Source: Patescibacteria group bacterium (lineage in GTDB: Bacteria > Patescibacteriota > Patescibacteriia > UBA1558 > GWA2-36-10). Taken from it: 64,000 nt of DNA. Numbering within the stretch: the stretch's first letter is position 1; every line of letters begins with the position of its first letter. The notes below the pieces were generated by a model. That model was not told the DNA's origin. It saw only the letters and a list, made by a program, of their open reading frames with translations, and did not search any database. Positions 1,287 to 62,558 of the stretch are shown one piece after another. The DNA is taken from NCBI GenBank assembly GCA_041665505.1, contig JBAYIR010000005.1, positions 225 through 64,224 of the forward strand, read 5' to 3'. A program made the position numbers and the translations under genes.

Positions 1287-2537
1287 ATGGTCAGCAACAA
1301 AGATATTATCACTGGTCTGGATATTGGTACTAATGCTATTAGGGTAGTTATGGGGCAAAAAATGCCCGATGGCCGCCTCAAGATCATTGGCGCAGCCGAT
1401 ACTCCATCGGAAGGAGTTATTCGCGGTAGCATCAATTCTATTGAAGATGCTGTTTCTTGTATTTCTGAGACTATAGAAAAATGTGAGCGCATGACGGGAC
1501 TGCGTATTGATAAGATGGTAGTCGGTATATCTGGGGGGCATATCAAGACCATTAGTAGTAAAGGAGTAGTAGCTGTAGCCAAAGCCAATGAACAAGTAGA
1601 AGATTCTGATGTGGAGAGAGCTTTGGAAGTAGCAGAAAATACTACTACGATGCCCAATTATGAAATATTACATGTTTTACCAATTAGCTATAATTTAGAC
1701 GATCAAAAAAACATTAGAGAACCACAAGGCATGAGTGGCGTGCGTTTAGAAGTAGAGACACAAGTAGTAATGGCTTTATCTTCTCAGGTCAAAAATATGA
1801 CCAAGGTGATTTATCGCACCGGAGTAGATATAGAGTTTATTGTTTTTTCAATTTTAGCCACAGCTGAAGCAGTTTTAACGACCAAGCAAAAAGAATTAGG
1901 AGTAGCTGTAGTCAATATTGGTTCAGCTACTACATCTTTGGCAATTTTTGAAGAAGGTAATATCTTGCACACAGCAGTTTTACCAGTTGGAGCTGGTCAT
2001 ATCACCAATGATTTGGCAATTGGGCTCAAAACCTCGGTGGAGGTGGCTGAAGCAGTGAAGATAGACCATGGTCAGGCTCTAAGTGGAGATATTTCTAAGA
2101 GAGATGAAGTAGATCTTCATAAATATTCGGAAGATGAGAAAAAAGGTTCTTATGTTTTTAAAAAAGATATAGCTGATATTGCTGAAGCACGACTAGAAGA
2201 AATATTTTCTTTAGTCAAAGATGAATTAAAAGTTATTGACAGAGATGGTAAATTGCCTTCAGGTATTGTACTCACTGGTGGTGGAGCCAAAATGCCTATG
2301 ATTGTTGATTTAGCCAAAGAAATATTAGAACTGCCAGTATTTTTGGGTATGCCAGTAGATAGCAATTTTCCTATTGATAAATTAAATGATACAGAATATA
2401 CTACAGCTCTAGGTTTAGTCTTATGGGCCAATAAAAATATGGAAAATGGTGGTAATTTTTTAAATAACATCTCCGCTATTGGCCAAAGCACAGATAAGAT
2501 GAAAAGATGGTTTAAATCTTTGTGGCCATCTTCATAA
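1287..2537 (+). CDS. ftsA: Cell division protein FtsA
   Basis: 416 aa actin-like ATPase. N-terminus GLDIGTNAIRVV..., and it sits immediately upstream of ftsZ. Confidence 0.9.
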   Translation: MVSNKDIITGLDIGTNAIRVVMGQKMPDGRLKIIGAADTPSEGVIRGSINSIEDAVSCISETIEKCERMTGLRIDKMVVGISGGHIKTISSKGVVAVAKANEQVEDSDVERALEVAENTTTMPNYEILHVLPISYNLDDQKNIREPQGMSGVRLEVETQVVMALSSQVKNMTKVIYRTGVDIEFIVFSILATAEAVLTTKQKELGVAVVNIGSATTSLAIFEEGNILHTAVLPVGAGHITNDLAIGLKTSVEVAEAVKIDHGQALSGDISKRDEVDLHKYSEDEKKGSYVFKKDIADIAEARLEEIFSLVKDELKVIDRDGKLPSGIVLTGGGAKMPMIVDLAKEILELPVFLGMPVDSNFPIDKLNDTEYTTALGLVLWANKNMENGGNFLNNISAIGQSTDKMKRWFKSLWPSS

Positions 2538-2565: not shown

Positions 2566-3750
2566 ATGTTAAAAAAGAATATCAAAGAAGTAATACCTCC
2601 AGTCGAGACTTTTGCTAATATAAAAGTAATCGGTGTCGGTGGTTCTGGTGGATCAGCTATTAATCGTATGGTGGCTGCTAAAATTAGGGGTGTAGATTTT
2701 ATTGCTATAAATACTGATGCTCAGGCTTTACATAGTTCTATTGCACCAAATAAAATTCACATTGGCAAAACTACTACCAAAGGTTTGGGAGCGGGTATGA
2801 ATCCAGACTTAGGACTTAAAAGTGCTGAAGAAAATGAAGCTGATATCATTGGGCATCTACAGGGAGCAGATATGGTTTTTATTACTTGTGGATTGGGTGG
2901 TGGCACTGGCACTGGTGCAGCACCACTGATAGCCGATTTAGCCAGAGAAGCTGGAGCACTGACAGTAGCAGTAGTAACCAAACCTTTTACTTTTGAGGGG
3001 GTACATAGAAAAGATATAGCCGAAAGAGGTCTAGAAAAGTTGATGGATAAAGTAGATACTATTATTACTATTCCCAACGATAGATTGTTGCAGATTATTG
3101 ATAAAAAAACTTCTTTACTAGAAGCTTTTTCTATTGTTGATGAGGTCTTAAAGCAAGGTGTTCAAGGAATTTCAGAAGTTATTACTGTGCCCGGTCTAGT
3201 TAATGTAGATTTTGCTGATGTCAAAACTATCATGAGCCAATCGGGTAGTGCCCTAATGGGTATTGGTAATGCTAGTGGAGAAAATAGAGCTAGAGATGCT
3301 GCTAAAGCGGCTATAGATAGTCCGTTATTAGAATTGTCCATCAATGGTGCTACTGGTGTATTGTTTACTATCTCCGGCAGTAGTGATTTATCTATGTTTG
3401 AGGTCAATGAGGCCGCTGAAGTAATTACCGCCAACTGTGATCCAGAAGCTAGAATTATTTTTGGTACAGTGATTGACGAAGCCTTGGGCGATGAAGTAAA
3501 AGTGACAGTTATTGCCACTGGTTTTAAAGCCAATGACAATATGTCAAATAAATCTAGTGTCTCTTCAGAATTAAGTATGAGTCATCCCGAAGCCTTTGCC
3601 AAAAAATCAGAGGAAAGAAGAGAAAAACAGGCTTTTGAAAAAAGAAGAGATGATAGAGCTGAAGAAGAAGTAACAGAGTTACCAAAGAGTAAAAAAGAAG
3701 AAGAGCTTGATATACCAGCTTTTTTACGCAAAAAATTAAGAAGTAGATAG
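2566..3750 (+). CDS. ftsZ: Cell division GTPase FtsZ
   Basis: [13 protein letters not shown] and the tubulin signature [10 protein letters not shown], with an acidic C-terminal tail. Confidence 0.95.
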
Positions 3751-3753
3751 TCG

Positions 3754-4221
3754 ATGAATTGCCCAGTTTGCAATCATAAAGATACCAAAGTAAGAGACTC
3801 TCGTCTTAGTGGCGAGGGTTTTAGTATTCGTCGTCGCCGTTTATGTCAAAAATGTCATTTTCGTTTTTCTACTATTGAAGAAACAGAGCTTTTGGATTTG
3901 ATAGTTATTAAACGTGATGGACACAGGGAAAATTATGATAAAGACAAATTAATTCGTGGTCTGAGGACATCTTTGGAAAAAAGACAATATTTAGCAGAAA
4001 ATTTTCATAAACTTATCAATGATATTGAAAGAGATATTCAAAAAACATCTAAAAATGAAATTACTTCCAAGCAGTTGGGTGAGATAGTGATGAAAAGATT
4101 AAAATCTTTTGATCAGGTTGCTTATATCAGGTATGCTTCTGTTTATAGGTCTTTCAAGGATGCTGAGACTTTTCAAAGGGAGCTTAATCAACTTTTAAAA
4201 AAGAAAAAAAAGATTAAATAG
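3754..4221 (+). CDS. nrdR: Transcriptional repressor NrdR
   Basis: N-terminal zinc ribbon CPVC...CQKC followed by an ATP-cone, 155 aa. Confidence 0.9.
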   Translation: MNCPVCNHKDTKVRDSRLSGEGFSIRRRRLCQKCHFRFSTIEETELLDLIVIKRDGHRENYDKDKLIRGLRTSLEKRQYLAENFHKLINDIERDIQKTSKNEITSKQLGEIVMKRLKSFDQVAYIRYASVYRSFKDAETFQRELNQLLKKKKKIK

Positions 4222-4269
4222 TTATACACTTGTCACTCCATTTTTTCTGTGATAAGCTCAGATTACTTT

Positions 4270-4470
4270 TACGAAGCATTTTAACAATCAAATCAGGGAA
4301 GTGAGGTGAGATTCCTCCACAGTCCTAGCTACGGTAGTCTGGTATTTGCCAGATGATAGTCCGACACCTGAGATATTTACTTTCTCCTAAGGAGAGAAGG
4401 GTTAAATTTATTAACAATCATAATAATTTTACCTCTGCTTTTCTTAGGCAGGGATTTTTTATTTTTTGTT
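4270..4470 (+). promoter_or_regulatory. Candidate cobalamin (B12) riboswitch with terminator-type expression platform
   Basis: AGGGAA (4295-4300) followed by GGTGAGATTCC, and a B12-box-like AGTCCGACACCTGAG at 4358-4372. A hairpin CCTCTGC...GCAGGG plus T-run at 4432-4467 lies just before the ATG at 4492. Confidence 0.5.
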
Positions 4471-4491
4471 TATAAAAATTATTATAATACT

Positions 4492-6267
4492 ATGAAAAAA
4501 TTTATTCTTACTATTTTTGCTCTAGTTATTTTTGTCAGCCCCAATTTGATTTTAGCTGATAATGACAATACTATTGCCTATTTACAAGGGCAAAGTCAAA
4601 ATACTTGGATTAGCCAAGCTTTGGCAGCTGCGACGGCGGGTGGCATTGATATTAGCTATCTTGATTATCAAACTACAGATTTGATGGCGGCCTCTAAAAA
4701 TATTTTGACTTTAGCAGCCGTTGAATCACAAGACACAGATAATATTAGACAATTATTATCAGTTATAGAGTCTAGCAAGAATAATGGTCAATTTGGTTCA
4801 AGTGATTTACTCAATGATGATTTTTGGGTTTTAATGGCCTTGGCCTCGGTCAATCAATTAGCTGACACAGACAGTGCTAAAAATTTTATCTTAGACCATC
4901 AAAATACTGATGGAGGCTGGAGTTGGTCAGCTAGTGGCACTTCAGATAGCAATGACACAGCCGCAGCTATTATGGCTTTACTTGATTTAGGTTTAGATAG
5001 TAGCTCAACAGCGATTGTTAATGCTTTAGCTTATTTACAGACTAGCCAAAATGCCGATGGAGGTTTTGCTTATGATCTTGATAGTAGCTCCGATGGAGCT
5101 TCTACGGCTTGGGTTATTGCCGCTTTAAATAAAGCCAATATTTCGGCTAGCTCTTGGCAAAAAGATAATAATGATCCAATATCTTTTTTGGAAAGTTTAA
5201 GACAAGATAATGGTTCGTTTTTATGGATGCCTAGTGACGGGCAAGGTTCAACTATGGTGACAGCTTATGCCTTAGTAGCTTTAAGTGGCAAAGCTTATCC
5301 TATAAATTATATAGATATAGCAATAAATGAAGAAGTACTTGGTGGGCATAGTTTGCGTATTGAAGGACCAGCTGGCACTATTTGCCTAGCCAACAATTTA
5401 GAAGCTACTACAGTTTTGGAATTATTAGAGGCAGGTTCTAATGTTTGTGATTTTGAATATATTAGTCAAGATAGTGCTTATGGTGTTTATATTTCAGCTA
5501 TTGATGGAGTAAGTGCCTCTGGTATGGATGGTTGGCAATATTTTGTCGATTGGCAAGCTGGTATGTTGGCTGTGACAGATTTTATTTTAGAAGATAATCA
5601 AGAAGTGTTGTGGGCTTATGGAGGTTGGCCTTTTTATCCAGTTAAATTGGAAGTAAATGATAGTCATTTTGAGGTGGGAGAGACTTTGATGGTTGATTTT
5701 AAATATTACAACGGAGAGTCATGGTTGCCTTTGGCGGGAGCGGGCATAGTTTTTGGGGCAGAGACTTATTCTACTGATGCCAGTGGTCAATTTAGTTTGG
5801 TTCTGGATAGTGAGGGAATTTTCCCTATTTTTTCTCAGCCTAGTAGCACTTATGCCAGAAGCAATAAAGAATATATAGTAGTCGGTAGTGGCATTTCTCA
5901 AACAGTTGATTTATCAGTTAATGTAGAATCTGATGATGGTGGTGGAGTAGAAGAGGATGATGTGATTGCTTTTAATGTGGATAGATCAAGTATTAATTTT
6001 GGTACTTTAAATCCTGGTCAAGCCGTTGATACTATTGTATCTTTGTCCAATACCGGTAACGTTAATATCTATATCGAAGCTAGTGTTTTAGGGGATCAAG
6101 TTTTTACAGACTTTACCAGCTTAGATCAAGATCAATGGTCAGACTATAATCTTGATTTAGCCACAGGCTCCAGTGAAGCAGTAAATGTGGGGCTAGCTAT
6201 TCCTAGTAGTTTTTCGGCTTTAGGTCAAAAACAAGGCCAATTGATTTTTTGGGGTATTAATCAGTAA
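4492..6267 (+). CDS. Secreted alpha/alpha-toroid repeat protein with transcobalamin-beta-like (DUF4430-like) C-terminal region; putative extracellular cobalamin-binding protein
   Basis: Signal peptide, then repeated QNTDGGWSW / QNADGGFAY / RQDNGSF motifs (prenyltransferase/terpenoid-cyclase-like toroid repeats). Later GMDGWQYFVDWQ...DFILEDNQEVLWAYG resembles the GW.Y.VNG...D.v.W.Y pattern of the transcobalamin beta-domain. A riboswitch-like leader lies directly upstream. Confidence 0.5.
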   Translation: MKKFILTIFALVIFVSPNLILADNDNTIAYLQGQSQNTWISQALAAATAGGIDISYLDYQTTDLMAASKNILTLAAVESQDTDNIRQLLSVIESSKNNGQFGSSDLLNDDFWVLMALASVNQLADTDSAKNFILDHQNTDGGWSWSASGTSDSNDTAAAIMALLDLGLDSSSTAIVNALAYLQTSQNADGGFAYDLDSSSDGASTAWVIAALNKANISASSWQKDNNDPISFLESLRQDNGSFLWMPSDGQGSTMVTAYALVALSGKAYPINYIDIAINEEVLGGHSLRIEGPAGTICLANNLEATTVLELLEAGSNVCDFEYISQDSAYGVYISAIDGVSASGMDGWQYFVDWQAGMLAVTDFILEDNQEVLWAYGGWPFYPVKLEVNDSHFEVGETLMVDFKYYNGESWLPLAGAGIVFGAETYSTDASGQFSLVLDSEGIFPIFSQPSSTYARSNKEYIVVGSGISQTVDLSVNVESDDGGGVEEDDVIAFNVDRSSINFGTLNPGQAVDTIVSLSNTGNVNIYIEASVLGDQVFTDFTSLDQDQWSDYNLDLATGSSEAVNVGLAIPSSFSALGQKQGQLIFWGINQ

Positions 6268-6272
6268 AAATA

Positions 6273-6836
6273 ATGAAAGCTTTTAAAATATTTTTATTTA
6301 TATTGTTTTTTCTGCCTCTGCCATCTCAGGCTGTTGGTATTTCTGTCCAGCCATCTTCTATAGATTTATTATCGCCAGACGTAGTTGAAAAAAAACTTAG
6401 TGTCAAAAATATTTCTAAAGAACCAATAGTAGTCCATATTTATGTAGATGATTTTTCGGATAATATAAACATAGAACCAAATGAATTTGAACTTTTACCT
6501 GAGCAAGTGACGTCAGTCAGAATTTCTGGGGATTTTAGTAATTTTTCAGCTGGCACCCAAAAAACCAATATATCAGTTTTGTCTAAGGCTTTAGACAAAA
6601 AAAGTTTTAATGCTATTTCTGGTATCAAAATTCCACTGAGCATTTATATAAATAAAGATTACTTTCAGTGGTCAGGTCCAGCTGTTTTTGTAGTGGTGTT
6701 TTTGGGTGGCCTAATCATTTTTTATCTATTTAGAGTTTTTGTTAGGATTTTTAGTAAGCAAAAAAAGAAAGGCCACTGGTTTTCCATTAATCTATTGGTC
6801 CATCATAAAAAAAAGAGCTGGTATAAATGGCGCTAG
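6273..6836 (+). CDS. Hypothetical secreted protein with C-terminal membrane anchor
   Basis: Signal peptide, a beta-rich middle, one C-terminal TM helix and a basic tail. Tightly linked downstream of the 4492 gene. Confidence 0.55.
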   Translation: MKAFKIFLFILFFLPLPSQAVGISVQPSSIDLLSPDVVEKKLSVKNISKEPIVVHIYVDDFSDNINIEPNEFELLPEQVTSVRISGDFSNFSAGTQKTNISVLSKALDKKSFNAISGIKIPLSIYINKDYFQWSGPAVFVVVFLGGLIIFYLFRVFVRIFSKQKKKGHWFSINLLVHHKKKSWYKWR

Positions 6837-6880
6837 GCATATAAAATAACAATAAGCTATTATTTTTTTAATTCTGCAAA

Positions 6881-6903
6881 CGTAGCCGAAGGGCTATTTT
6901 TTT
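6881..6903 (+). terminator. Intrinsic terminator
   Basis: Hairpin GTAGCCgaagGGCTA followed by TTTTTTT. Confidence 0.6.
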
Positions 6904-6996
6904 GCTATAATCAAGATAATAAAAGTTAATATATTTATTATTAGCTAGTAGTATTTGGCTTTTAGTAGCAATTTAATAGAATAAATAACAATTATT

Positions 6997-7359
6997 ATGA
7001 TGGACGAAGAATTAAAAAGAATTATCAACCAAAATCAAGAAACTTTGGCCGATATTGACAAAAGATTGCATCGTATTGAAAAAAAATTCGTTTGGAATGG
7101 TATTTTTGGCTTTATAAAAACTTTTATTATTTTAGCACCAATCATTGTTGGTGCTATTTACCTGACGCCAATTCTAAAAGATTATATCAAAATCTTTGAG
7201 CCAATTTTTAGAAACATGCCACTGACTTTACAGAATCTAAGTAATGCTTCTTCGCAAATAAATAAAGGAACCAATGAAGCATCTGGGCAAGTCAATGGTT
7301 TAGAGGCTTTCTGTAACCAAGAGTCTCGTCAAGCGATGGTTGACCAACTTTGTCAGTAA
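6997..7359 (+). CDS. Hypothetical small membrane protein
   Basis: 120 aa with one central TM segment. No recognised motif. Confidence 0.45.
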   Translation: MMDEELKRIINQNQETLADIDKRLHRIEKKFVWNGIFGFIKTFIILAPIIVGAIYLTPILKDYIKIFEPIFRNMPLTLQNLSNASSQINKGTNEASGQVNGLEAFCNQESRQAMVDQLCQ

Positions 7360-8455
7360 AAAAATATCAGTGGAAGAACTACGTACTAAAATAAAAGAAC
7401 TGCATTCTGAAATTTCCAAAGCTTTGGACATTTTGGATTTGGCCAATAAGAAAAATAAAGTAATAGCCTTAAAACAAGAGATGATTGCTCCTGATTTTTG
7501 GAATGATCAGGATAGAGCCAAAACAATTAGTCTAGAAGCTAGTGTTTTAGAAGGGCAGATTGATGTTTGGCAGACTTTAGTTAAAGAAGTGTCCGAACTT
7601 TCTGAGATGTCACAAGATAAACAAGCTGATGAATTATTAATTGATATCCAAAATAAATATCAAAGTCTTGACAGTCAATTTAAAGATTTATCACAGCAGC
7701 TTTATTTACAGGGTAAGCATGACCATTTACCAGCTATTGTTACTATCAATGCTGGAGCCGGAGGAGTGGATGCTCAAGATTGGGCACAGATGGTAGAAAG
7801 AATGTATCTTCGTTTGGCTGAAAAAAATAATTGGACGCTTAGTTATTTATCTCGTTCTATGGGAGCGGAAGCGGGTATAAAAAGTGCTACTTTCAAAATC
7901 AATGGTTTGTATGCTTATGGTTATCTCAAAAATGAAGCTGGTGTGCATCGTTTGGTGAGGCTTTCTCCATATGATGGCGATCACGCTAGACATACTTCTT
8001 TTGCTATGTTAGAAGTGTTACCAGAATTATTACAAACAGATATGGATATTAAAGATGATGATTTAAAGATAGATACTTTCAGATCTTCTGGTAATGGTGG
8101 ACAGTCTGTCAACACTACTGATTCAGCTGTTCGTATTACTCATTTACCAACCGGTATTTCTACTAGTTGTCAAAATGAAAGATCACAGTTACAAAATAAA
8201 AAACAAGCTCTTGCTTATTTATATGGTAAACTGCAAAAATATTATGAAGCAGAAAGAGAGGAAGAAAAAAAATTACTCAAAGGAGAATATACAGAAGCAG
8301 CTTGGGGCAATCAAATCAGATCATATGTTATCCATCCTTATAAAATGGTCAAAGATCATCGTACTAATTTTCAATCCAAAGACCCAGACAGAGTGTTAGA
8401 CGGGGATTTGATGCCTTTTATCAGAGCAAATTTGGAAAAAAATGTAGTGGCTTAA
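7340..8455 (+). CDS. prfB: Peptide chain release factor 2 (intact, no programmed frameshift)
   Basis: GGQ motif (SSGNGGQSVNTTDSAVRITH), N-terminal DFWNDQDRA, and an RF2-type tripeptide region reading SPY instead of the canonical SPF. No CTT-TGA-C shift site upstream. Confidence 0.85.
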   Translation: MTNFVSKKISVEELRTKIKELHSEISKALDILDLANKKNKVIALKQEMIAPDFWNDQDRAKTISLEASVLEGQIDVWQTLVKEVSELSEMSQDKQADELLIDIQNKYQSLDSQFKDLSQQLYLQGKHDHLPAIVTINAGAGGVDAQDWAQMVERMYLRLAEKNNWTLSYLSRSMGAEAGIKSATFKINGLYAYGYLKNEAGVHRLVRLSPYDGDHARHTSFAMLEVLPELLQTDMDIKDDDLKIDTFRSSGNGGQSVNTTDSAVRITHLPTGISTSCQNERSQLQNKKQALAYLYGKLQKYYEAEREEEKKLLKGEYTEAAWGNQIRSYVIHPYKMVKDHRTNFQSKDPDRVLDGDLMPFIRANLEKNVVA

Positions 8456-12388: not shown

Positions 12389-12506
12389 TATTGTCAAATT
12401 TTTTGGATATTGCTAAAATTAAATAACTTGTGAGCGATGCTTACGAGTGTTGCTCACCTAACGGCGCACCATGTGCGCCAGGCCTCTAGCCGAGGGAGAG
12501 ATTCCT

Positions 12507-12647
12507 ATGAGAATCACCATCCATCCGACGTTGACCGCGCGAAGACGGAAGAACACCGAGCAGGCGACGCAGAAGGCCACGGCGACCAAGAAGGCCGCGA
12601 GGAAGAAGAACGCCAAGAAGGCGACGAGCAGCGAGGCGATCGTCTAG
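12507..12647 (+). CDS. Candidate small basic protein (46 aa) inside island 1
   Basis: SD GGGAGAG 6 nt upstream of ATG 12507 and ~89% GC3. The overlapping acidic frame 12437..12727 has ~50% GC3 and is probably not coding. Terminator hairpin 12676-12696 plus T-run follows. Confidence 0.35.
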   Translation: MRITIHPTLTARRRKNTEQATQKATATKKAARKKNAKKATSSEAIV

Positions 12648-12955
12648 GAGACGACTTCTCCGATGATGACGAGGGGCCCCCGGACACTACGGGGGCTCTA
12701 CTTTTTTTACTGCGATTTATTATTTAGTCTTATTTATAAATATTAGTTTGGATTGACTAGTTTTAGCCTCTTTGCTATCCTAAAATCAGCATTTCTCGCA
12801 TAGCTTGTTAGCTCGGTAAGGAGGAAGTCTCAAACAAAGAGCTCTCGAGTTTTCGGGAAATGTAGCCACAAGGCTTAACCAAGGAGGTTTTAACCGATCA
12901 TCACATGCCACTATGAGAGTGGCATTCACTCCGTCATGCATGGAGGTTTGTGGGC

Positions 12956-13480
12956 ATGAAGCCTATTCTTCGGTGGGCATGCCTCAGCGGTGTGCTGGCC
13001 ATTCTGGCTATCTTGACGCCCTGCCAGGGAGCCACCTGCCAGAATGACGAAGCGGTCATCATGACCGCGCTGAATATCGCCAGTTGCGACGGCACGAGCG
13101 CCATCGCTCTGAGCGAAGTCAAGCTGACGGCTAATCCCGCGGATGGGAACGTCGTCAAGGTCACCATCAACCACCTGATGAGCGGACAGACCGTGGCTAC
13201 TGCCGGTGATGCTATTTGGCTCTACTACGCGCCTTCCTACGACGCCCGGCAGTTCAGCGACGCTTACGCGACTACTGTCGTCCTGGACGCCAACATGATC
13301 GCTTCGCCGGCACTCTTCACCTACACGCACACGGCCCGGGGTGCCCTGATGCCCGGCGACCAGCTGGTGGTTCAGCCCACCTACAATACCTCCAATACCT
13401 CGGCCAGCTCGGCCCGTACGTGGAGCTCTGATGCCACGGGCATTGCCGACATTGACATGGGCGGTCAGCAGGCCGCCTAG
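12956..13480 (+). CDS. Secreted Ala/Thr/Ser-rich protein (high-GC codon usage) inside island 1
   Basis: GGAGG 9 nt upstream of ATG 12956, signal peptide MKPILRWACLSGVLAILAILTPCQGA, TAG stop. The 8-bp inverted repeat ATGCCACT/AGTGGCAT at 12905-12925 lies just upstream. Confidence 0.5.
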   Translation: MKPILRWACLSGVLAILAILTPCQGATCQNDEAVIMTALNIASCDGTSAIALSEVKLTANPADGNVVKVTINHLMSGQTVATAGDAIWLYYAPSYDARQFSDAYATTVVLDANMIASPALFTYTHTARGALMPGDQLVVQPTYNTSNTSASSARTWSSDATGIADIDMGGQQAA

Positions 13481-13595
13481 TTCGATCTCCCGGTTCAGAG
13501 GACATACAGATCTGTGAACACCACACCGCTTTCCAAGCGGCAACAGTTGGTTTGTATCCATCTGTAAAGTCCTTCGGGTCAAGAAATGGCCCATT

Positions 13596-13660
13596 CCCGG
13601 CAAGAAGACACTATCTGGTTTCGGCCAGAGAAGACTTCTTGCCGGGTCTTCTTTTTGTCT
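13596..13660 (+). terminator. Intrinsic terminator closing island 1
   Basis: 12-bp perfect stem CCCGGCAAGAAG / CTTCTTGCCGGG followed by TCTTCTTTTTGTCTTG. Confidence 0.7.
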
Positions 13661-16186: not shown

Positions 16187-16332
16187 ACACAATCTGGTGA
16201 TTTCACCATCCGTACCATTGACATTACACAGCTTGAAACAGGCTGTAGCATATTCCTCCACTAGGGAGGTATCCGCGCTTCTTGATTTCGGTCAAGAGGC
16301 ATAGTTCATGGCTCAATCATGGAGGTTTTTCC

Positions 16333-16434
16333 ATGCCCAACTGCCGCGGACCCACGCATCGCCGTCTCTCGAGTTTTCACAAGGACAACATCTTCACCAC
16401 CGACCGCGTCGCGGCCGCCAGCCCCCAGGCCTGA
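16333..16434 (+). CDS. Candidate small ORF (33 aa) in island 2
   Basis: GGAGG 8 nt upstream of ATG 16333, ~85% GC3, TGA stop. The overlapping ORF-track frame 16319..16504 has lower GC3. Confidence 0.25.
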   Translation: MPNCRGPTHRRLSSFHKDNIFTTDRVAAASPQA

Positions 16435-16666
16435 CCCGGGCGCCGGCGTCGTGATCGTGCTCCGGGAGAAATCCTGGGGCGTCCATCCACTGTTGGGTAG
16501 ATAAGGAGGCATTCGTCTATGCTTTCCTGGCTTCTGCCCGACGATGACCGTGTTGTCGAAGCCCTCGTCTGGGTCAGACAGCACAGAGTGGACCGCACCG
16601 TAAAGGCCGGTGTATGGACCACGCGTCATCGTTTTCTGACACCTGAACTGACAAGGAGAAACCAAA

Positions 16667-16780
16667 GTGTTCTTCCTCCTACCCGAGTACCGCGGGAAGG
16701 TCGCCGAAGGCGACGACCCTCACGCGGAGCGACGCGGGTTCCGCAGCGTTGTGGACGCTGTATGGGCCCATGATGAGTAG
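16667..16780 (+). CDS. Candidate small ORF (37 aa) in island 2
   Basis: AAGGAGAAACC upstream of GTG 16667, ~75% GC3, TAG stop. A further candidate ATG 16519 is preceded by TAAGGAGG, but its extent is ambiguous. Confidence 0.2.
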   Translation: MFFLLPEYRGKVAEGDDPHAERRGFRSVVDAVWAHDE

Positions 16781-17366
16781 CCTATTGCTGCTCATGAGTT
16801 CAGCCCTGGTTTTTTCCTAGGGAACGTTTGGTGCTTTGCGTCGAGGCCAGACTCGGCCCCTTTCTCTGAGAGGGCGCCGCCGGCGGTACGACGGATTGCT
16901 ACACAGCTAAAGACTTGCGCATCCCTGCGTAGCGCGCGTGCCTACGCTGCACCTGTTTCCTAGCTCGGCCCTCGGGCCCCGATGTCATGCGGACGCTTCC
17001 AGCGCCCGCGCAGACTGGGGCTCGAGGGCCTCTCATCAACACGGCCGCCAGCCGGCCTCCTTCAAGTGTTCCTCGTATTTTTTGATATGAGGTTGTCCCC
17101 GCGGGACATAATTCGCAGGATGCCCGGTGTGGTTCGTGTTGTTCTTCCCCTCGGGGGGCGCCTTCGTTTGCCGACTGCTCAGTAGCAGCCGACAATTCGA
17201 ATGGCGCTTCCCGGGGGCCTATTTTTTTTATTAAAAATTTTTATAAACAGTCCAAATCCTTGACTTTAATATTTTATTATGCTATTTTATTGGGGACTTT
17301 TGTCGCGTAATAATAATTAATTTTACGGACAGAATAGTCGCATTTTTTTATTTTTATTAACAAAAT

Positions 17367-18369: not shown

Positions 18370-20466
18370 ATGGAGCGACACCCTTTAGAAAAAGTAAGAA
18401 ATATTGGAATTATTGCGCATATTGATGCTGGTAAAACTACTGTTACCGAGCGTATTCTTTTTTATACTGGGAAAAAACATAAAATTGGCGAAGTCCATGA
18501 AGGTAAAGCCGAGATGGATTGGATGGAGCAAGAAAAAGAGCGCGGTATTACTATTACCTCAGCCGCTACAACTTGTTTTTGGGATTTACCAGATTGGTTG
18601 GGTGGAGGTAAAGCCAATATTAATATTATTGATACACCAGGTCACGTAGATTTTACTGTCGAAGTAGAAAGATCACTAAGAGTGCTTGATGGTGGCGTGA
18701 TTGTTTTTGATGGAGTAGCTGGTGTAGAACCACAATCAGAAACTGTTTGGAGACAAGCTGATAAATATCATGTGCCAAGATTGGCTTTTATAAATAAGAT
18801 GGATAGAATGGGTGCAGATTTCTATTTTGATATGGATACTATCCACGAGCGCTTGACCAAAAAAGCCTATCCTATGCAATTACCAATTGGTGCCGCTGAA
18901 ACATTTACTGGTATTATCAATGTCTTAGAGCGTGAAGCTTGGTACTATCTTGATGAAGATGGTAAACAATATGAAAAGCGTGAGGTTCCTGATGACATGA
19001 AAGATAAAGTAGAAAAATATCGAGCTGAACTGATTGAAGCAATTGTGGAAAATGATGAAACTTTGATGGAAAAATATCTTGGTGGGCAGGAGCCAGATTT
19101 AGTAGCCATCAAAAAAGTATTAAGACAAGCAGTAATTGATAATAAACTAGTACCAATTTTTTGTGGTAGTGCTTTGAAAAATAAAGGCGTCCAATTTTTA
19201 TTAGACGCAGTAGTATCTTATCTACCATCACCAATTGATGTGCCACCGATTGAAGGTAATGAACCAAGAAATGAAGAAAATATTATCCAAGTCAAGATTG
19301 GTGATAGTGAACCATTTGTTGGTTTGGCTTTTAAAGTAGCTACTGATCCTTATGTTGGCCGATTAACTTTTGTGCGTGTTTATTCAGGTACTTTAAAGGC
19401 TGGTTCTTATGTTTATAATGCTAATACAGAAAAGAAAGAAAGAATTGGTCGAATACTGCGAATGCACGCCAATGCCAGAGAAGAATTAACTGAAATTTTT
19501 AGTGGTGATATTGTGGCCGTAGTTGGTTTAAAAGACACTACCACTGGTCACACTATTTGTGATCCAGCTCGTCCAGTAGTTTTGGAAAGTATGGAATTCC
19601 CAGACCCAGTTATACACGTGGCGGTAGAACCAAAAACCAAGCAAGATCAAGAAAAAATGGGTATGGCTTTGGCCAAATTGACTGAAGAAGATCCTACCTT
19701 TACTGTCAGAAGTGATGAGGAGACAAATCAAACTATTATTGGTGGTATGGGAGAGCTTCACTTAGATATTATCGTTGATCGTATGAAACGTGAGTTTGGT
19801 GTGGAAGCTAATGTCGGTGCTCCTCAGGTAGCTTATAAAGAAACTATTACTGGTAGTGCTGAAGCTGAAGGAAAATATGTCAAGCAATCTGGTGGACGTG
19901 GTCAATATGGTCATTGTTGGTTGCGCTTGGAAGCTCAAGAGCCTGGTAAAGGATTTGAGTTTATAGAACAAATTAAAGGTGGTTCTATTCCTAAAGAGTT
20001 TATTGCGCCGATTGAAAAAGGTGTTAAAGAAACTATGAACAATGGTATTTTGGCTGGTTATCAGATTCAAGATGTCAAAGTGACTGTTTATGATGGATCA
20101 TATCATGATGTTGACTCTTCAGAAGCCGCTTTTAAAGTAGCTGGCTCTATGGCTTTTAAAGCTGCTTTTAGGCTAGCCAATCCAGTAATACTAGAACCAA
20201 TTATGAAAGTAGAAGCAGTTACTCCAGAACAATATATGGGCGATGTGATTGGTGATCTTAATTCCAAGAGAGGACAAATATCAAATATGACTGACAGAGC
20301 TGGGGCTAAGGTAATTAATGCTGAAGTGCCACTAGCTGAAATGTTTGGCTATGCTACTGCTCTTAGATCTATGACTCAAGGTAGAGCTAGTTATTCTATG
20401 GAGTTTGCTAAATATCAAGAAGTGCCTAGAAATGTCGCTGAAGAAATAATGAAAAAAAAGGCTTAA
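18370..20466 (+). CDS. fusA: Elongation factor G
   Basis: [10 protein letters not shown]1 motif and DTPGH. 698 aa. Confidence 0.95.
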
Positions 20467-20482
20467 ATTAATATTTATCTAT

Positions 20483-20513
20483 ACAGTCGCGTCTGACGCG
20501 GCTGTATTTTTTT
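20483..20513 (+). terminator. Intrinsic terminator after fusA
   Basis: ACAGTCGCGtctgaCGCGGCTGT followed by ATTTTTTTTG. Its core is nearly identical to the tuf terminator. Confidence 0.7.
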
Positions 20514-20572
20514 GTTTAAAAAAAGAAGTCGCCCGCCACTGCTGCTGCAGGGCGGGCGACGAAAGCGTCAGC

Positions 20573-20803
20573 CTATGTCGGCTGATGAAGCCTCTTTTCC
20601 AGGCTTCGGACGCGAGAACGCGTGATGCCTTTGGTCTTCAGCTGAGACCAGCTCAGAGCACGGTTCTTCAGCGCTCTTTTGATCATCATGATCATGGTAA
20701 AGAGTGTCAGTTCCGTAGGATCTTCATCCTCGAAGATCAACTGAGCCTTAGTGAGGAGCTCCTCGCTGGTCATATTAAAGTCCAGGTTCACAGCTTCGGA
20801 CAT
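20573..20803 (-). CDS. Hypothetical 76-aa protein (high-GC codon usage), island 3 cassette A
   Basis: AAAGGAG 7 nt upstream of ATG (reverse strand), TAG stop. Terminator GTCGCCCGCC...GCGGGCGAC plus T-run lies at 20527-20566 on the reverse strand. Confidence 0.45.
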   Translation of the reverse strand: MSEAVNLDFNMTSEELLTKAQLIFEDEDPTELTLFTMIMMIKRALKNRALSWSQLKTKGITRSRVRSLEKRLHQPT

Positions 20804-20858
20804 CAACTACTCCTTTTCGACTGTTACATCCTTGTGCAGGGGTGAACGAGGCAACATA

Positions 20859-20890
20859 ATAACATATATTTTAAGTTTAGTCAATCCAGC
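20859..20890 (-). repeat. Direct repeat copy 1 (27-nt exact match with copy 2); encodes reverse-strand promoter TTGACT-17-TATTAT
   Basis: Forward-strand ATAACATATATTTTAAGTTTAGTCAAT(C)CAG. Sits 43 nt upstream of the cassette A start. Confidence 0.7.
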
Positions 20891-20971
20891 TCTTAGTAAG
20901 GAGCTAGATTAATATTCAAAGGGGGCGCTTCTGGCGAAGCGCCCCCTCGGTGTCGGCTGACCGATGTCGGA

Positions 20972-21418
20972 TCAGACGAAGAAGTGTATGATCTTGATGT
21001 CCAGACCGTGATGATAATAGTATTCGCCGTTCATGTCGATGCCGACAACCGAGCCATCGGCAATCTTGTCGGGCAGATCCAACTGCATGGTCTTCATCAG
21101 GATTTCATGAGCCAGTTCGCTATGGATGCTGAACATCTTGATCTTCTGGAGAATCTCGAGATGACGATCGTACTCGCTCTGGCAGGTGCCAGCACAGTGG
21201 CCACGGCACTGCTCCGGCGGACAGAGCTCCTGGTGTTCGCGTTCCAGCTCCTTGAGGTCCTGCACGATTCCGTAGAACAAGCCCCATGCTCGTTTGACGT
21301 CTTTACTCGCTTTGATGCCGAGCAGCCGTCGTGGGTCGAGGATCTCCATCTTGGGCCAAGTGACCTTATCCAGATCGATCCCTTGGGCTCGATCGTTGAG
21401 TTCGCTGAGCAGGTTCAT
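20972..21418 (-). CDS. Hypothetical 148-aa Cys-containing protein (CPPEQCRGHCAGTC), island 3 cassette B
   Basis: AGGAGG 6 nt upstream of ATG (reverse strand), TGA stop. Terminator AGGGGGCGCTTCgccaGAAGCGCCCCCT lies at 20920-20950. The 5'UTR carries the 10-bp inverted repeat TAACGGTGTA / TACACCGTTA. Confidence 0.45.
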   Translation of the reverse strand: MNLLSELNDRAQGIDLDKVTWPKMEILDPRRLLGIKASKDVKRAWGLFYGIVQDLKELEREHQELCPPEQCRGHCAGTCQSEYDRHLEILQKIKMFSIHSELAHEILMKTMQLDLPDKIADGSVVGIDMNGEYYYHHGLDIKIIHFFV

Positions 21419-21593
21419 CTTACTCCTCCTGGATTCCCTTGCTAGGGAATGAAATAACGGTGTAACACAAATACCACATTAGTTAGTACACCGTTAGGCT
21501 AACTAATGTTTTTCAAAACACAGAATTAAAGAATATTATTATTCTTCAAGTCTATATTTTAAAATTTATAAACAACATTTCAGATTTATGTTT

Positions 21594-22598: not shown

Positions 22599-22709
22599 CT
22601 TTGTGTTTTAAAAACACACAAAATTAATAAATAATAATTAATATTTTAAGATAGCTGGATCACAAACCCCTGAATTTTGAGGGGGGCTATCACAAGGAGA
22701 AAAAATCAA

Positions 22710-23897
22710 ATGGCAGATATTTTCAAACGTGAAAAGCCACACGTTAATGTGGGCACTATTGGTCACGTCGACCACGGTAAAACTACTTTGACAGCGGCTA
22801 TTTTAAAAGTTTTAAATGCTTCAGGTGGAATAGCTCAACAAAAGGATGTTGATCAAATTGACAATGCACCAGAAGAGAGAGAGCGTGGTATTACTATTGC
22901 TACAGCTCATGTTGAGTATGAATCAACAGCTAGACACTATGCACACGTTGACTGTCCAGGTCATGCTGACTATGTCAAAAACATGATTACTGGTGCAGCT
23001 CAAATGGATGGTGCAATACTAGTAGTATCAGCTGCTGATGGTCCAATGCCTCAAACTAGAGAACATATTCTATTAGCTCGCCAAGTTGGTGTGCCTTATA
23101 TAGTAGTTTTTCTAAATAAGATGGACCAAGTAGATGATCCAGAATTGGTAGATTTAGTAGAAGAAGAAATTAGAGATTTATTGAAGAAATATGAATTTCC
23201 TGGTGATACCACTCCAATTATTCGTGGTAGTGCTATCAAAGCTTTGGAAAATCCAAGTGGTGAGGATGCTAAACCTATTTTAGATTTAGTAAAAGCTTTG
23301 GATGATTATATTCCAGAACCAAAACGTGATACAGATAAACCATTTTTGATGCCAATTGAAGATATTTTTTCAATTGAAGGTCGTGGTACTGTAGTCACTG
23401 GTCGTATTGATAGAGGTATTATAAAATTGAATGAAGAAGTAGAATTGGTTGGTATCAATGACACCAGTAAGACTGTAGTCACTGGTATTGAGATGTTTAA
23501 CAAACAACTAGAAGAAGGTAGAGCTGGTGATAATGCTGGTTTACTTCTTCGTGGTACCAAGAAAGAAGATGTTGAACGTGGTCAAGTATTGGCCAAACCT
23601 GGTTCTATTACTCCTCATACAGAATTTGAAGCTGAAACTTATATCTTAAGTAAAGAAGAAGGTGGTCGTCATACCCCATTTTTCAAAGGATATAAACCAC
23701 AGTTTTATATTCGTACTACTGATGTTACTGGTGAAGTAGAACTTTCAGAAGGTGCAGAAATGGTTATGCCTGGTGATACAGTTAATTTGAAGATCAAATT
23801 AATATCCCCAGTAGCGCTTGAAGAAAAATCAAGATTTGCTATTCGTGAAGGTGGCCGTACTGTTGGTGCTGGTGTAGTAACCAAAATTATAAAGTAA
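22710..23897 (+). CDS. tuf: Elongation factor Tu
   Basis: [26 protein letters not shown]. Start taken at ATG 22710, which has AAGGAG upstream, rather than the ORF-track start at 22677. Confidence 0.95.
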
Positions 23898-60776: not shown

Positions 60777-61385
60777 ATGCTCCTAGAATTATATGGACTG
60801 CCGGGTAGCGGTAAGTCAACACTAGCCAAACGCTTGGCAGAGATAGACAGCTCAAAATTTGTAGTAGTCAATTTTTCCAATAAATTGTCTAGATATTTTT
60901 ATTTATTGCTTTATATAATAAATCATCCTGTAAATTTTTATCAATGGATAATGTTTTTATTACAAAATAAAAAATTGTTTATTTATAAATTGCATTTGTT
61001 ATTTTTATCTCTGGCCAAGATGCAAAAAGCCAGCTTTATAAAAAATAAGCAGGCCTTAGTAGATGAAGGATTATTACAAAGAGTTTTGACTATTTCGGAT
61101 AATTTGGTAGATGATAAGTCATTGGATAAATTATTAAAATATTTAGTCAGTCCAGTCCATTTGATTATTATGGAGGGTGGTGTTTTTCATCGTTTTATAA
61201 CAGACGAGCAGAAAGATAATAGCCCTAGATTAAAATTGGGGCAAGATTATTTTGTAGCCTGGCAAAATATGCTAGAGAAAAATAATAATATTATAAAAAG
61301 ATATTTAGCCGATAAAAAAAATTTAAAGGTAGCTATATATAATAAAGAATCTATTAAGGCAGAGGATATTGTCTCTGGCATTTAA
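60777..61385 (+). CDS. P-loop NTPase/kinase-like protein
   Basis: Walker A LYGLPGSGKSTLAKRL at the N-terminus; 202 aa. Confidence 0.55.
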   Translation: MLLELYGLPGSGKSTLAKRLAEIDSSKFVVVNFSNKLSRYFYLLLYIINHPVNFYQWIMFLLQNKKLFIYKLHLLFLSLAKMQKASFIKNKQALVDEGLLQRVLTISDNLVDDKSLDKLLKYLVSPVHLIIMEGGVFHRFITDEQKDNSPRLKLGQDYFVAWQNMLEKNNNIIKRYLADKKNLKVAIYNKESIKAEDIVSGI

Positions 61386-61452
61386 TTTTTGGGTAAATAA
61401 AGAAGCGCCTCACGGGTGGACTGATGTCCCGCCGCGAGGCGCCCAAGACGAT

Positions 61453-61878
61453 TCATACAACATCGCCGCTGTCTTCATATCGTACGCCATCGCTATCGAG
61501 GCGTACCTCAATGCTGGTGTCAAACACGCTGCAGAGGGTTTGGCACAACTCTACGACTTCTTGGCGATGCATTTCGCCGTTGAATTCAAAGACCCAGTGG
61601 TCTTCGGTAGCACTTCGCCGGCTGTTCTCGAACCAGATGACACCGATGAGCAGGTGCATGTGTTGTCCCAGCAGCAGACGCAGCAGGCCCCGGCGAGGCT
61701 TCTTGGTGGGGTTCCATTTGAGAATCCCCAGTGAATCTTCGGGTGACAGGGGAGCTTTGAGTTTACTCCCGCCACATGATGCCAACTCCCAGCCTTGGTT
61801 CTTGAGCCATCGCCCAACTCGGATCGAGATGTGGACATCTGACACCTTAACTTCAGGAGTGTTCACGTCTAACCTCAC
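61453..61878 (-). CDS. Candidate 141-aa protein in island 4 (GTG start, weak SD)
   Basis: Reverse frame with plausible amino-acid composition, GC3-biased codons and a TGA stop. Other overlapping frames look like high-GC artefacts. Confidence 0.3.
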   Translation of the reverse strand: MRLDVNTPEVKVSDVHISIRVGRWLKNQGWELASCGGSKLKAPLSPEDSLGILKWNPTKKPRRGLLRLLLGQHMHLLIGVIWFENSRRSATEDHWVFEFNGEMHRQEVVELCQTLCSVFDTSIEVRLDSDGVRYEDSGDVV

Positions 61879-61934
61879 TTGCTAGGGGTGTACATTCATT
61901 GCCGCACTACTTTTGTAGTAGTCTTGACCTTGTG

Positions 61935-62489
61935 TCAGGCCAGACCGCGTCGCAGCTTGGCTGCGAAGTCCTTGGCGTAGTCTTCCTTGACCTGGAAGTC
62001 GGCCTGAGCTTCCGGCAGCAGACAGCGGAACTGTCCGATCACGTGCTGCTCCAAGTAGCTCAGCGACTCTTCCACGGTCTTGCCCATCGCCGCCCCACTG
62101 GCGAAGGTCTTGACGATCCAGAAGGTCTCGCCACCCTCCAAGAGGTGGGCATCGTGGACGATGTCGCCTTCGATGGTCAGGATGTCGTCGGGATTGGTGT
62201 CCTTCTGAGAATCCCAGGCAGTCCGGACAATGCGAGCAATGTCGCCCTCGCACACCTGCTGCGAACGCAGGAAAGTGATGGTGGCTTCTTCGCCGCCGGG
62301 CAGATGAATAACGCCATGGAAGTACAGCGCGACCCGGATCAGCTTCAGACTGGCCTCAGGGTAGTTCCGGGTCAGTTTCACGGAGATGTCCCAGATGCGG
62401 TCGATGTGGCACATGTTGTGCATCACGTCTTTGGCTTCGTAGTAGGGAGCTACGAAGTTGGAGACAGAGGAGAGCTTGAGTTTATCCAT
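61935..62489 (-). CDS. Hypothetical 184-aa protein in island 4
   Basis: ATG 62489 with AAAGG 9 nt upstream, TGA stop, GC3-biased. Contains MHNMCHIDRIW...YFHGVIH, His-rich and possibly metal-binding. The ORF-track start at 62558 runs into the promoter. Confidence 0.5.
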   Translation of the reverse strand: MDKLKLSSVSNFVAPYYEAKDVMHNMCHIDRIWDISVKLTRNYPEASLKLIRVALYFHGVIHLPGGEEATITFLRSQQVCEGDIARIVRTAWDSQKDTNPDDILTIEGDIVHDAHLLEGGETFWIVKTFASGAAMGKTVEESLSYLEQHVIGQFRCLLPEAQADFQVKEDYAKDFAAKLRRGLA

Positions 62490-62529
62490 CGTGTGGCCTT
62501 TCGGTTGGGGTACATAGGGCGGACTATAT

Positions 62530-62558
62530 ATAATAGCATATATGTTAGTTTTTGTCAA
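62530..62558 (-). promoter_or_regulatory. Consensus sigma70 promoter (reverse strand) driving the island 4 genes
   Basis: Reverse strand reads TTGACA, 17-nt spacer AAAACTAACATATATGC, then TATTAT. Lies in AT-rich DNA flanking the island. Confidence 0.65.

Follow-up and report, generated by a model that had tools for sequence, protein, structure and literature searches.

Patescibacteria have very small genomes and are generally unable to make cofactors, and to our knowledge it has not been established how they obtain vitamin B12. This question is raised by a stretch of 64,000 nucleotides from a Patescibacteria contig (JBAYIR010000005.1, positions 225 to 64,224; hereafter the window), in which two adjacent genes, here called A and B, lie downstream of an RNA element. 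An earlier note, made from the sequence alone, had proposed that A is a bacterial analogue of the eukaryotic B12 carrier, placed under riboswitch control and possibly partnered by B. The analysis described here leads us to conclude that the locus is a two-gene operon consisting of a cobalamin riboswitch with its terminator, A, B and a closing terminator. Judged from sequence comparison and structural models, and with a probability of roughly 0.65, this riboswitch-controlled pair would be a system for scavenging extracellular B12, in which A binds the corrinoid and B tethers or receives A. The role of A as a corrinoid binder is held more confidently than the tethering role of B.

Protein A has the domain order of the animal cobalamin carriers

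Protein A is 100% identical to a protein from a Patescibacteria metagenome-assembled genome that NCBI names [quoted passage not shown]. Its sole strongly hydrophobic stretch comprises residues 1–24 and, because this stretch contains no cysteine, the N-terminus looks like a Sec signal peptide rather than a lipoprotein signal, in keeping with the signal peptide that had been assigned to it. The structure was predicted with AlphaFold2 from an alignment of 43 homologues, giving a mean predicted local distance difference test score (pLDDT) of 84. The signal peptide is followed by an alpha/alpha toroid, to which Pfam assigns Prenyltrans (PF00432; 40.9 bits, cut-off 26.5) and SQHop_cyclase_C (31.1 bits, cut-off 26.1). 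The earlier note had counted at least four Q-x-x-D-G-G-(W/F) repeats here; the toroid itself stands, on the strength of the Pfam matches and of a model with 11–12 helices, but the count does not, as two motifs are exact (Q137 and Q186) and two are degenerate (KNNGQF near residue 96 and QDNGSF near residue 238).

Beyond a short linker lies a DUF4430/SLBB beta-grasp, the counterpart of the transcobalamin beta domain. Pfam DUF4430 (PF14478) matches residues 307–377 with 28.5 bits against a cut-off of 23.8, and with 32.2 bits when the domain is scanned alone, so that in hidden Markov model searches both families predicted for A, Prenyltrans and DUF4430, exceed their curated cut-offs. The segment GMDGWQYFVDWQ...EVLWAYG, in which a DUF4430/transcobalamin beta-domain motif had been seen, falls within this match. 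Six beta-grasp residues (C298, C319, G331, Y333, G347 and W348) are invariant in the 43-sequence alignment. The protein ends in two beta-sandwich domains: a Pfam scan of the first gave no match, and the second shows a weak, below-cut-off match to Cep192_D4 (20.5 bits), while the family profile of A reaches the CEP192 structure 9fh8 with an E-value of 0.001.

In structure comparison, the best matches of A are the animal cobalamin carriers. When the model was searched against the PDB with Foldseek, ranks 1–15 were all occupied by transcobalamin, intrinsic factor or haptocorrin (E 2.7e-11 to 3e-8), with alignments of about 420 columns that cover both the toroid and the beta-grasp domain; terpene cyclases and prenyltransferase beta subunits ranked below the carriers and matched the toroid only. 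A profile of the beta domain alone found, below E = 0.2, only transcobalamin, haptocorrin and intrinsic factor, the best match being 5no0 (E 2.2e-6), and the whole-family profile of A likewise reaches haptocorrin and, with E 1.6e-5, the beta domain of transcobalamin (5no0). In the alignment, the segments SGPYL and EFWQ of human transcobalamin fall on the invariant G331-x-Y333 and G347-W348. The resemblance claimed for the C-terminal segment was confirmed by the DUF4430 match and by the carriers being its sole relatives below E = 0.2 in the profile search of the PDB.

Like the animal carriers (PDB 2BB5, 4ZRP, 2PMV and 4KKI), A is predicted to be secreted and presents a toroid, a flexible linker and an SLBB/DUF4430 beta-grasp in this order, at an identity of about 12–17%. 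Unlike them, it carries two additional C-terminal beta-sandwich domains, its expression is riboswitch-controlled, a membrane-anchored PapD-like partner replaces receptors such as CD320 or cubilin, and its corrinoid binding is predicted. The sequence of its toroid also sets it apart, resembling terpene-cyclase repeats rather than the alpha domain of the carriers. Pfam, Foldseek, the beta-domain profile and the riboswitch described below all support the proposal of a bacterial analogue of the eukaryotic B12 carrier, with binding of the vitamin being predicted from sequence and model.

A divergent cobalamin riboswitch precedes gene A

The RNA element upstream of A was compared with the corresponding regions of related loci, a scan of one genome per species having yielded 79 Patescibacteria loci as the comparison set. 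In each of three metagenome loci with homologues of A, a cobalamin-class match lies upstream of the gene, and one of these is above its cut-off. A model built from four elements, the window's included (R1), matched 39 loci at E <0.01, all of the matches lying upstream of the gene and on its strand. In the alignment of these hits, 94% of the cells are paired, and compensatory changes occur in 15 of 18 pairs, values far above those of shuffled and slid controls, it being understood that an alignment fitted to the model favours the structure. Ten further loci have, upstream of the gene, a cobalamin riboswitch that Rfam reports at gathering thresholds. The loci with an element at or above an Rfam cut-off are L001, L032, L041, L042, L044, L047, L050, L061, L064, L072 and L078; scores for RF01482 are 71.3 bits in L032, 57.1 in L047, 54.5 in L042, 52.5 in L044 and 51.4 in L064, and scores for RF00174 are 45.9 bits in L078 and 35.5 in L001.

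A second model (R2) was assembled from nine cut-off-passing elements of distant loci, none of which comes from the window's clade. Its sole significant match in the 64-kb window is 4271–4414 (25.5 bits, E 0.0011, the next match having E 0.83), where the E-values of both R1 and R2 are to be read as rough. Upstream of the gene and on its strand, R2 found a match in 76 of the 79 loci, and one of the three misses is without any upstream sequence. The B12 box that had been placed upstream of A therefore holds up: its Rfam score is below threshold, but it is the sole significant match of R2 in the window, it recurs in nearly all related loci and its helices covary. On these sequence comparisons we consider the element to be a divergent but genuine cobalamin riboswitch, with the terminator-like hairpin that follows the aptamer and precedes the start codon (4492) as its expression platform. 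By analogy with the usual behaviour of cobalamin riboswitches, it is expected to turn expression off when B12 is bound.

Some related loci contain two cobalamin riboswitches, located at 2464–2630 and 3755–3937 in L047, at 3130–3250 and 3760–3946 in L050, and at 2394–2559 and 3761–3931 in L051. The first riboswitch of L051 precedes a second, toroid-only paralogue of 332 residues with a twin-arginine signal and a C-terminal membrane helix, and that of L050 lies ahead of an additional DUF4430 gene. The riboswitch at 3490–3679 of L055 is on the minus strand and faces a divergently transcribed DUF4430 gene.

Protein B is a predicted membrane-anchored partner

Gene B follows A on the same strand at a distance of 5 nucleotides, according to the list of open reading frames (ORFs) of the window. 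The AlphaFold2 model of its product (pLDDT 84.6) comprises a signal peptide, a beta-sandwich at residues 18–126, a membrane helix at residues 135–160 and a basic tail, which points to a single-pass membrane protein with a PapD/MSP-like domain (residues ~21–128) outside and the basic tail in the cytoplasm. The earlier description of the 187-residue protein as membrane-anchored and beta-rich agrees with this signal-like N-terminus, beta-rich domain and single C-terminal helix, the last placed at residues ~131–161 when judged together with hydrophobicity. The top Foldseek matches of B are the N-domains of the chaperones Caf1M, DraB and FaeE, the ASH domain of CEP192, and MSP (E ~1e-7), with a template modelling score (TM) of up to 0.72 on the target; its match to Pfam Cep192_D6 is below the cut-off.

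The chaperones of chaperone-usher pili are two-domain proteins, whereas B has one domain and a membrane helix and has the fold alone in common with them. Neither usher nor pilin genes were found near B. A function as a pilus chaperone was ruled out on these two grounds.

In about 72 of 84 loci, the gene directly 3' of A is a homologue of B, usually 0–10 nucleotides away, and the pairing is kept in a closed Nealsonbacteria genome whose flanking genes are unlike those of the window. This conserved adjacency speaks for the suggestion that B is a partner of A, with contact between the two proteins being predicted; on the models, B may tether A through their PapD-like domains.

Related loci split, fuse and extend the operon

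The family of A is large, with 1,421 cluster representatives (50% identity) at E <=1e-30, and the order of domains and genes varies among its members. In L077, L079, L082 and L084, the counterpart of A is a toroid without SLBB domain, and a separate membrane-anchored DUF4430 gene lies just upstream, behind the same riboswitch. The stand-alone DUF4430 proteins of these split loci score 66.8 bits in Pfam and align with the beta domain of A at 97.6% probability in hhalign. L081 and L083 encode toroid-only proteins as well, but here two further genes, C and D, are located upstream of the riboswitch. The fusion of toroid and SLBB in one lineage and their separation in another indicate that the two domains are tied to one function.

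The order A-B-C-D is found in about 38 loci, that is, in about half of the related loci (for example, the tightly spaced C-D pair occupies 6361–7394 in L044 and 6363–7323 in L036). C is a membrane-anchored stand-alone DUF4430 protein of 142–169 residues, and D is a multi-pass membrane protein of ~180 residues that matches Pfam DUF6580 with ~165 bits. L047 and L074 encode B and C as a single protein with a signal peptide, a PapD-like domain, two membrane helices and DUF4430, and both domains of the fusion are predicted to lie outside the membrane.

A profile of D gave one match in the PDB, the 182-residue membrane chain of 6FNP (E 4.4e-5), with a similarity that extends over about the first 115 residues; a single-sequence search of the PDB with a DUF6580 protein gave no match, and a profile was needed to reach 6FNP. 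This structure is the energy-coupling factor (ECF) transporter ECF-CbrT of Lactobacillus delbrueckii, which was shown by experiment to transport B12 and cobinamide (PMC5997447). From its length, we infer that the matched chain is the S-component CbrT, and D thus appears to be remotely similar in sequence to a B12-specific S-component. Some DUF6580 members bear the NCBI name “DUF6580 family putative transport protein”, and for a few of them Pfam also reports ECF_trnsprt; altogether, more than 4,240 database proteins (90%-identity clusters) match DUF6580. Genes for ATP-binding cassette (ABC) ATPases are absent from all 84 loci examined.

In the window's own clade the operon consists of riboswitch, A and B, some members having an extra small secreted protein before A. 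An iterative DUF6580 search found 39 loci and no ORF of the window, and C and D are absent from the 64-kb window, from 10 kb past its end and from the 4–6 kb flanks of close relatives.

The small protein (116–162 residues) lies between riboswitch and A in part of the window's clade (Table 1) and does not occur in the window. Its signal is twin-arginine-like or of the lipoprotein type, and a “DWDFG...Y.YYING” region is conserved. The hint “GxxGYEYFING” had suggested that this ORF encodes a DUF4430 protein, a possibility rejected after Pfam and NCBIfam gave no match and hhalign against the SLBB profile gave a probability of 1.2%.

Many related contigs, among them L015, L016, L017, L019, L031 and L032, are titled “uncultured Gammaproteobacteria bacterium” or “Candidatus Saccharibacteria”. 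They carry the Patescibacteria-type operon, and the close relatives among them also have the same neighbour genes; the titles are probably taxonomic mislabels of metagenome bins.

A model for B12 scavenging and its rivals

Repression by B12 suits genes that serve acquisition, as known from the cobalamin riboswitches that precede uptake genes. In the model that we favour, a low level of intracellular B12 would lead the riboswitch to let transcription reach A and B. A would be exported via its signal peptide and would most likely bind a corrinoid between its toroid and its DUF4430/SLBB domain, as transcobalamin, intrinsic factor and haptocorrin do. B would display its PapD/MSP-like domain outside the membrane and most likely hold or receive A, possibly via the C-terminal PapD-like domain of A. 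The corrinoid would then be handed to a membrane transporter, which would be D where D is encoded; neither C nor D is seen in the window and the 10 kb beyond it. In the A-B-C-D relatives, the path would likely run from A to B or C at the membrane and on to D. A more far-reaching version, which we put forward tentatively and regard as rather doubtful, is an undescribed B12 relay of Patescibacteria, in which A docks on B via PapD-like domains and the corrinoid passes to C and then to D, which would share an ECF module or do without a dedicated one.

Several observations weigh against B12 scavenging by A and B. The ligand of A is deduced from fold, homology and riboswitch. The eukaryotic cobalamin-binding family, presumably Pfam Cobalamin_bind, is not among the Pfam matches of A at E <=1, the toroid matching terpene-cyclase/prenyltransferase families instead, and the sequence of the toroid has more in common with repeats of the squalene-hopene-cyclase type than with the alpha domain of transcobalamin. 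The structure comparison with transcobalamin, from which the earlier note had expected superposition, gave a divided result: the carriers are the top 15 PDB matches over both domains, but the global superposition is poor, with a root-mean-square deviation of ~23 Å and a TM of 0.39–0.45 normalised to the target. The poor global fit arises because the toroid and the beta-grasp domain are placed differently in the ligand-free model. Association of the alpha domain with the beta domain in animal carriers depends on bound cobalamin (PMC11107200), and an open model of A without ligand can follow from such dependence. As for the RNA, an Rfam scan of the whole window at gathering thresholds gave no match, and a permissive scan of 4100–4700 placed AdoCbl (RF01482) at 4279–4409 with 34.6 bits (E 1.3e-4) against a cut-off of 50. 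Alignment of the last domain of A with the ectodomain of B by hhalign is weak (P = 0.003, probability 9.6%). Among the ten large ORFs of the window that were scanned, none encodes a B12 transporter, an ABC ATPase or a B12-dependent enzyme, and no ORF of the window contains an LSGGQ motif. Finally, for a split transcobalamin-like pair in an ECF-like operon of Lactobacillus sakei, heme scavenging was proposed from docking and uptake phenotypes (bioRxiv 10.1101/864751). A common origin of the C-terminal domain of A and the ectodomain of B had also been considered; it was dropped on account of the weak hhalign result, and the statement that they belong to the same fold class was kept.

These points bear on four other explanations of the locus. 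The L. sakei proposal would extend to A if the protein bound another tetrapyrrole or cofactor, heme for example, and the system imported that ligand and not B12, which we consider improbable in view of the cobalamin-class riboswitch that precedes the gene in 76 of 79 loci, several times above Rfam cut-offs, and of the beta domain of A, whose sole sequence relatives in the PDB are cobalamin carriers. In addition, D bears a resemblance to CbrT, and ECF-CbrT took up cobalamin without competition from hemin (PMC5997447). An enzymatic role for A, as a member of the terpene-cyclase/prenyltransferase class acting on envelope lipids, is what its NCBI name suggests, and its best sequence matches in the PDB are indeed squalene-hopene cyclases and drimenyl diphosphate synthase (E 1e-10 with the single sequence, 1e-26 with the profile). 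Against this very improbable role stands the alignment of D152-S-N154-D155 of A with the DVDD motif of a class II terpene-cyclase-type enzyme: the central aspartate of the DxDD motif is the catalytic general acid of class II cyclases, and in its place A has N154, invariant in the 43 sequences. Together with secretion and the presence of a single toroid, this residue argues against enzyme activity, as do the fusion to SLBB, the control by a B12 riboswitch and the placement by Foldseek of the cobalamin carriers above all enzymes. The QxxDGGW-type repeats of A are a mark of shared fold ancestry, not a sign of enzyme activity.

The possibility that A mainly sequesters B12, or strips it from a host or from competitors, and feeds no dedicated importer is unlikely in our judgement, and it draws its support from the window's clade, in which A and B occur without C, D or an ABC ATPase in the 64 kb, in the 10 kb beyond and in the 4–6 kb flanks of close relatives. 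Patescibacteria are often episymbionts, which fits a sequestration operon of A and B only. On the other side, repression by B12 is what genes for acquisition would show, A and B are joined to C and D, with its CbrT-like membrane protein, in about half of the family, and the failure to find C and D in this genome applies to the window and the 10 kb beyond it. Hardly credible, in comparison, is the view that the upstream RNA is a chance match or a decayed element and that A and B are expressed independently of B12. Its basis is the score of 34.6 bits against a gathering score of 50 and the roughness of the R1 and R2 E-values; it is opposed by the finding that the element is the sole significant match of a model built without the window's clade, by its occurrence at the same position in 76 of 79 loci, by the compensatory changes that keep its helices and by the terminator that follows the aptamer. 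The scavenging of extracellular B12 by A and B is the reading that we favour.

The locus and its surroundings

The features of the locus are collected in Table 1; the window was matched to about positions 198–64197 of a metagenomic contig of 94,076 nucleotides. In the region 3700–7400, a pattern scan found 8 terminator-like sites where 1.8 were expected from shuffles.

Table 1. Features of the A-B locus, by position in the window, and of the small upstream protein, by position in the related loci
Feature	Position	Strand	Evidence or remark
ftsA	1287-2537	+	
ftsZ	2566-3750	+	
nrdR	3754-4221	+	followed by a 270-nucleotide spacer before gene A
Cobalamin riboswitch aptamer, divergent, compact	4271-4414	+	3' hairpin 4380-4400; Rfam sub-threshold and comparative models
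Intrinsic-terminator-like hairpin	4433-4470 (hairpin 4433-4453, with T-run)	+	8 pairs, then ATTTTTTATT; candidate expression platform
Gene A	4492-6267	+	ORF, 591 residues; predicted secreted transcobalamin-like protein
A: predicted signal peptide	4492-4557 (residues 1-22, ...LILA/DNDN)	+	hydrophobicity; pLDDT low at residues 14-21
A: alpha/alpha toroid	4564-5286 (residues 25-265)	+	Pfam; AlphaFold2, 11-12 helices, pLDDT mostly >90
A: linker, toroid to beta-grasp	residues 278-284		low pLDDT
A: DUF4430/SLBB beta-grasp	5347-5625 (residues 286-378)	+	counterpart of transcobalamin beta domain
A: beta-sandwich domain 1	5629-5886 (residues 380-465)	+	AlphaFold2 strands, pLDDT 83-94
A: disordered acidic linker	residues 467-490		AlphaFold2 model
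A: C-terminal PapD/ASH-like beta-sandwich	5962-6264 (residues 491-591)	+	AlphaFold2 strands, pLDDT ~65-86
Gene B	6273-6836	+	ORF, 187 residues; predicted single-pass membrane protein
Terminator-like hairpin and T-run	6882-6904 (hairpin 6882-6897)	+	GTAGCCGAAGGGCTAT, then TTTTTTTG; closes the A-B operon
Small upstream protein, L009	3384-3866		
Small upstream protein, L011	3450-3938		
Small upstream protein, L013	3523-3921		
Small upstream protein, L016	2036-2443		
Small upstream protein, L019, L021, L022, L024, L026, L029			also present

A conserved ORF of 120 residues with one hydrophobic helix (6997–7359) lies 3' of the terminator hairpin that follows B, and it overlaps by 20 nucleotides the TTG start of the release factor 2 gene (7340–8455), an order that is kept in relatives. 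The release factor 2 gene of the window reads as a single unbroken ORF of 371 residues; a programmed frameshift site is common in such genes. ARAGORN found no tRNA genes in the whole 64-kb window, nor are there Rfam matches at gathering thresholds, while translation genes are present, with elongation factor EF-G at 18370–20466 and EF-Tu at 22677–23897.

Four G+C-rich islands of ~1.1–1.25 kb each (12401–13651, 16201–17301, 20451–21501 and 61351–62551) stand out at 43–53% G+C from a window of ~33% G+C, and they are mutually dissimilar. Their ORFs are mostly short, occur on both strands and look spurious, although one of 176 residues (12950–13480) starts in the manner of a signal peptide. The first three islands gave no Rfam match at E <=0.01 and all four gave none at gathering level; no Pfam match was obtained for the seven island ORFs scanned, and the second island had no plasmid match. 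The islands could be unannotated structured RNAs or foreign inserts.

Relation to known systems and significance

The SLBB superfamily was defined by Burroughs, Balaji, Iyer and Aravind in 2007, who predicted that secreted bacterial proteins with toroid and SLBB domains, some of them fused to Ig-folds, bind B12, and who suggested that animals acquired their carriers from bacteria (PMC1796856). The bacterial and archaeal proteins described in that work share with A a signal peptide, toroid, SLBB domain, sometimes an Ig-fold, and a predicted role in B12 capture, and A is a member of this group. The 2007 study (PMC1796856) treats the clade as a Gram-positive innovation and does not mention riboswitches (0 occurrences), whereas A belongs to Patescibacteria and is linked to a riboswitch. 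New in this analysis are a family in Patescibacteria that is almost always linked to a riboswitch, an anchored partner with a PapD-like fold, and an operon extended by DUF4430 and DUF6580 genes. The literature searched contained no paper on these points, no experimental work on B12 binding by a bacterial DUF4430 protein, no paper on DUF6580, and none that treats Patescibacteria with cobalamin riboswitches or transcobalamin with the Candidate Phyla Radiation.

Extracytoplasmic proteins that bind corrinoids with high affinity and feed a transporter, usually under a cobalamin riboswitch, are known in BtuG and BtuH of Bacteroides and in BtuF of the BtuCDF system. BtuG is a beta-propeller and BtuF a two-lobe periplasmic binding protein, folds that are unrelated to that of A, and the envelope context differs. 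The L. sakei proteins Lsa1840 and Lsa1839 are closer in design, being secreted toroid and SLBB proteins that accompany an S-component-type transporter, like the split loci L077, L079, L082 and L084 and the A-B-C-D operons; that system, for which heme is proposed, has its own ECF ATPase and T components (bioRxiv 10.1101/864751), in contrast to the 84 loci considered here, which are without an ABC ATPase. The similarity of D to ECF-CbrT (6FNP) is remote, and D differs in having no ECF module nearby and in being absent from the window.

The basic idea of bacterial toroid and SLBB proteins that capture B12 has been in print as a prediction since 2007, and the present finding is useful and not surprising in that respect. 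The widespread, riboswitch-linked transcobalamin-like operon is a concrete candidate for the acquisition of B12 by Patescibacteria. The operons of relatives connect DUF4430 and DUF6580 with B12 uptake and suggest that transporters of the S-component type can be served by capture proteins outside the cell, a kind of protein that ECF-type S-components are not known to have. If the proposed relay were true, functions would be assigned to DUF4430 and DUF6580, ECF-type S-components would gain an extracellular capture protein, and prokaryotes would have a counterpart of the carrier and receptor of animals, with the domain order of transcobalamin. To the question of a bacterial origin of the animal B12 carriers, raised in 2007, the family of A adds a deep-branching bacterial lineage.

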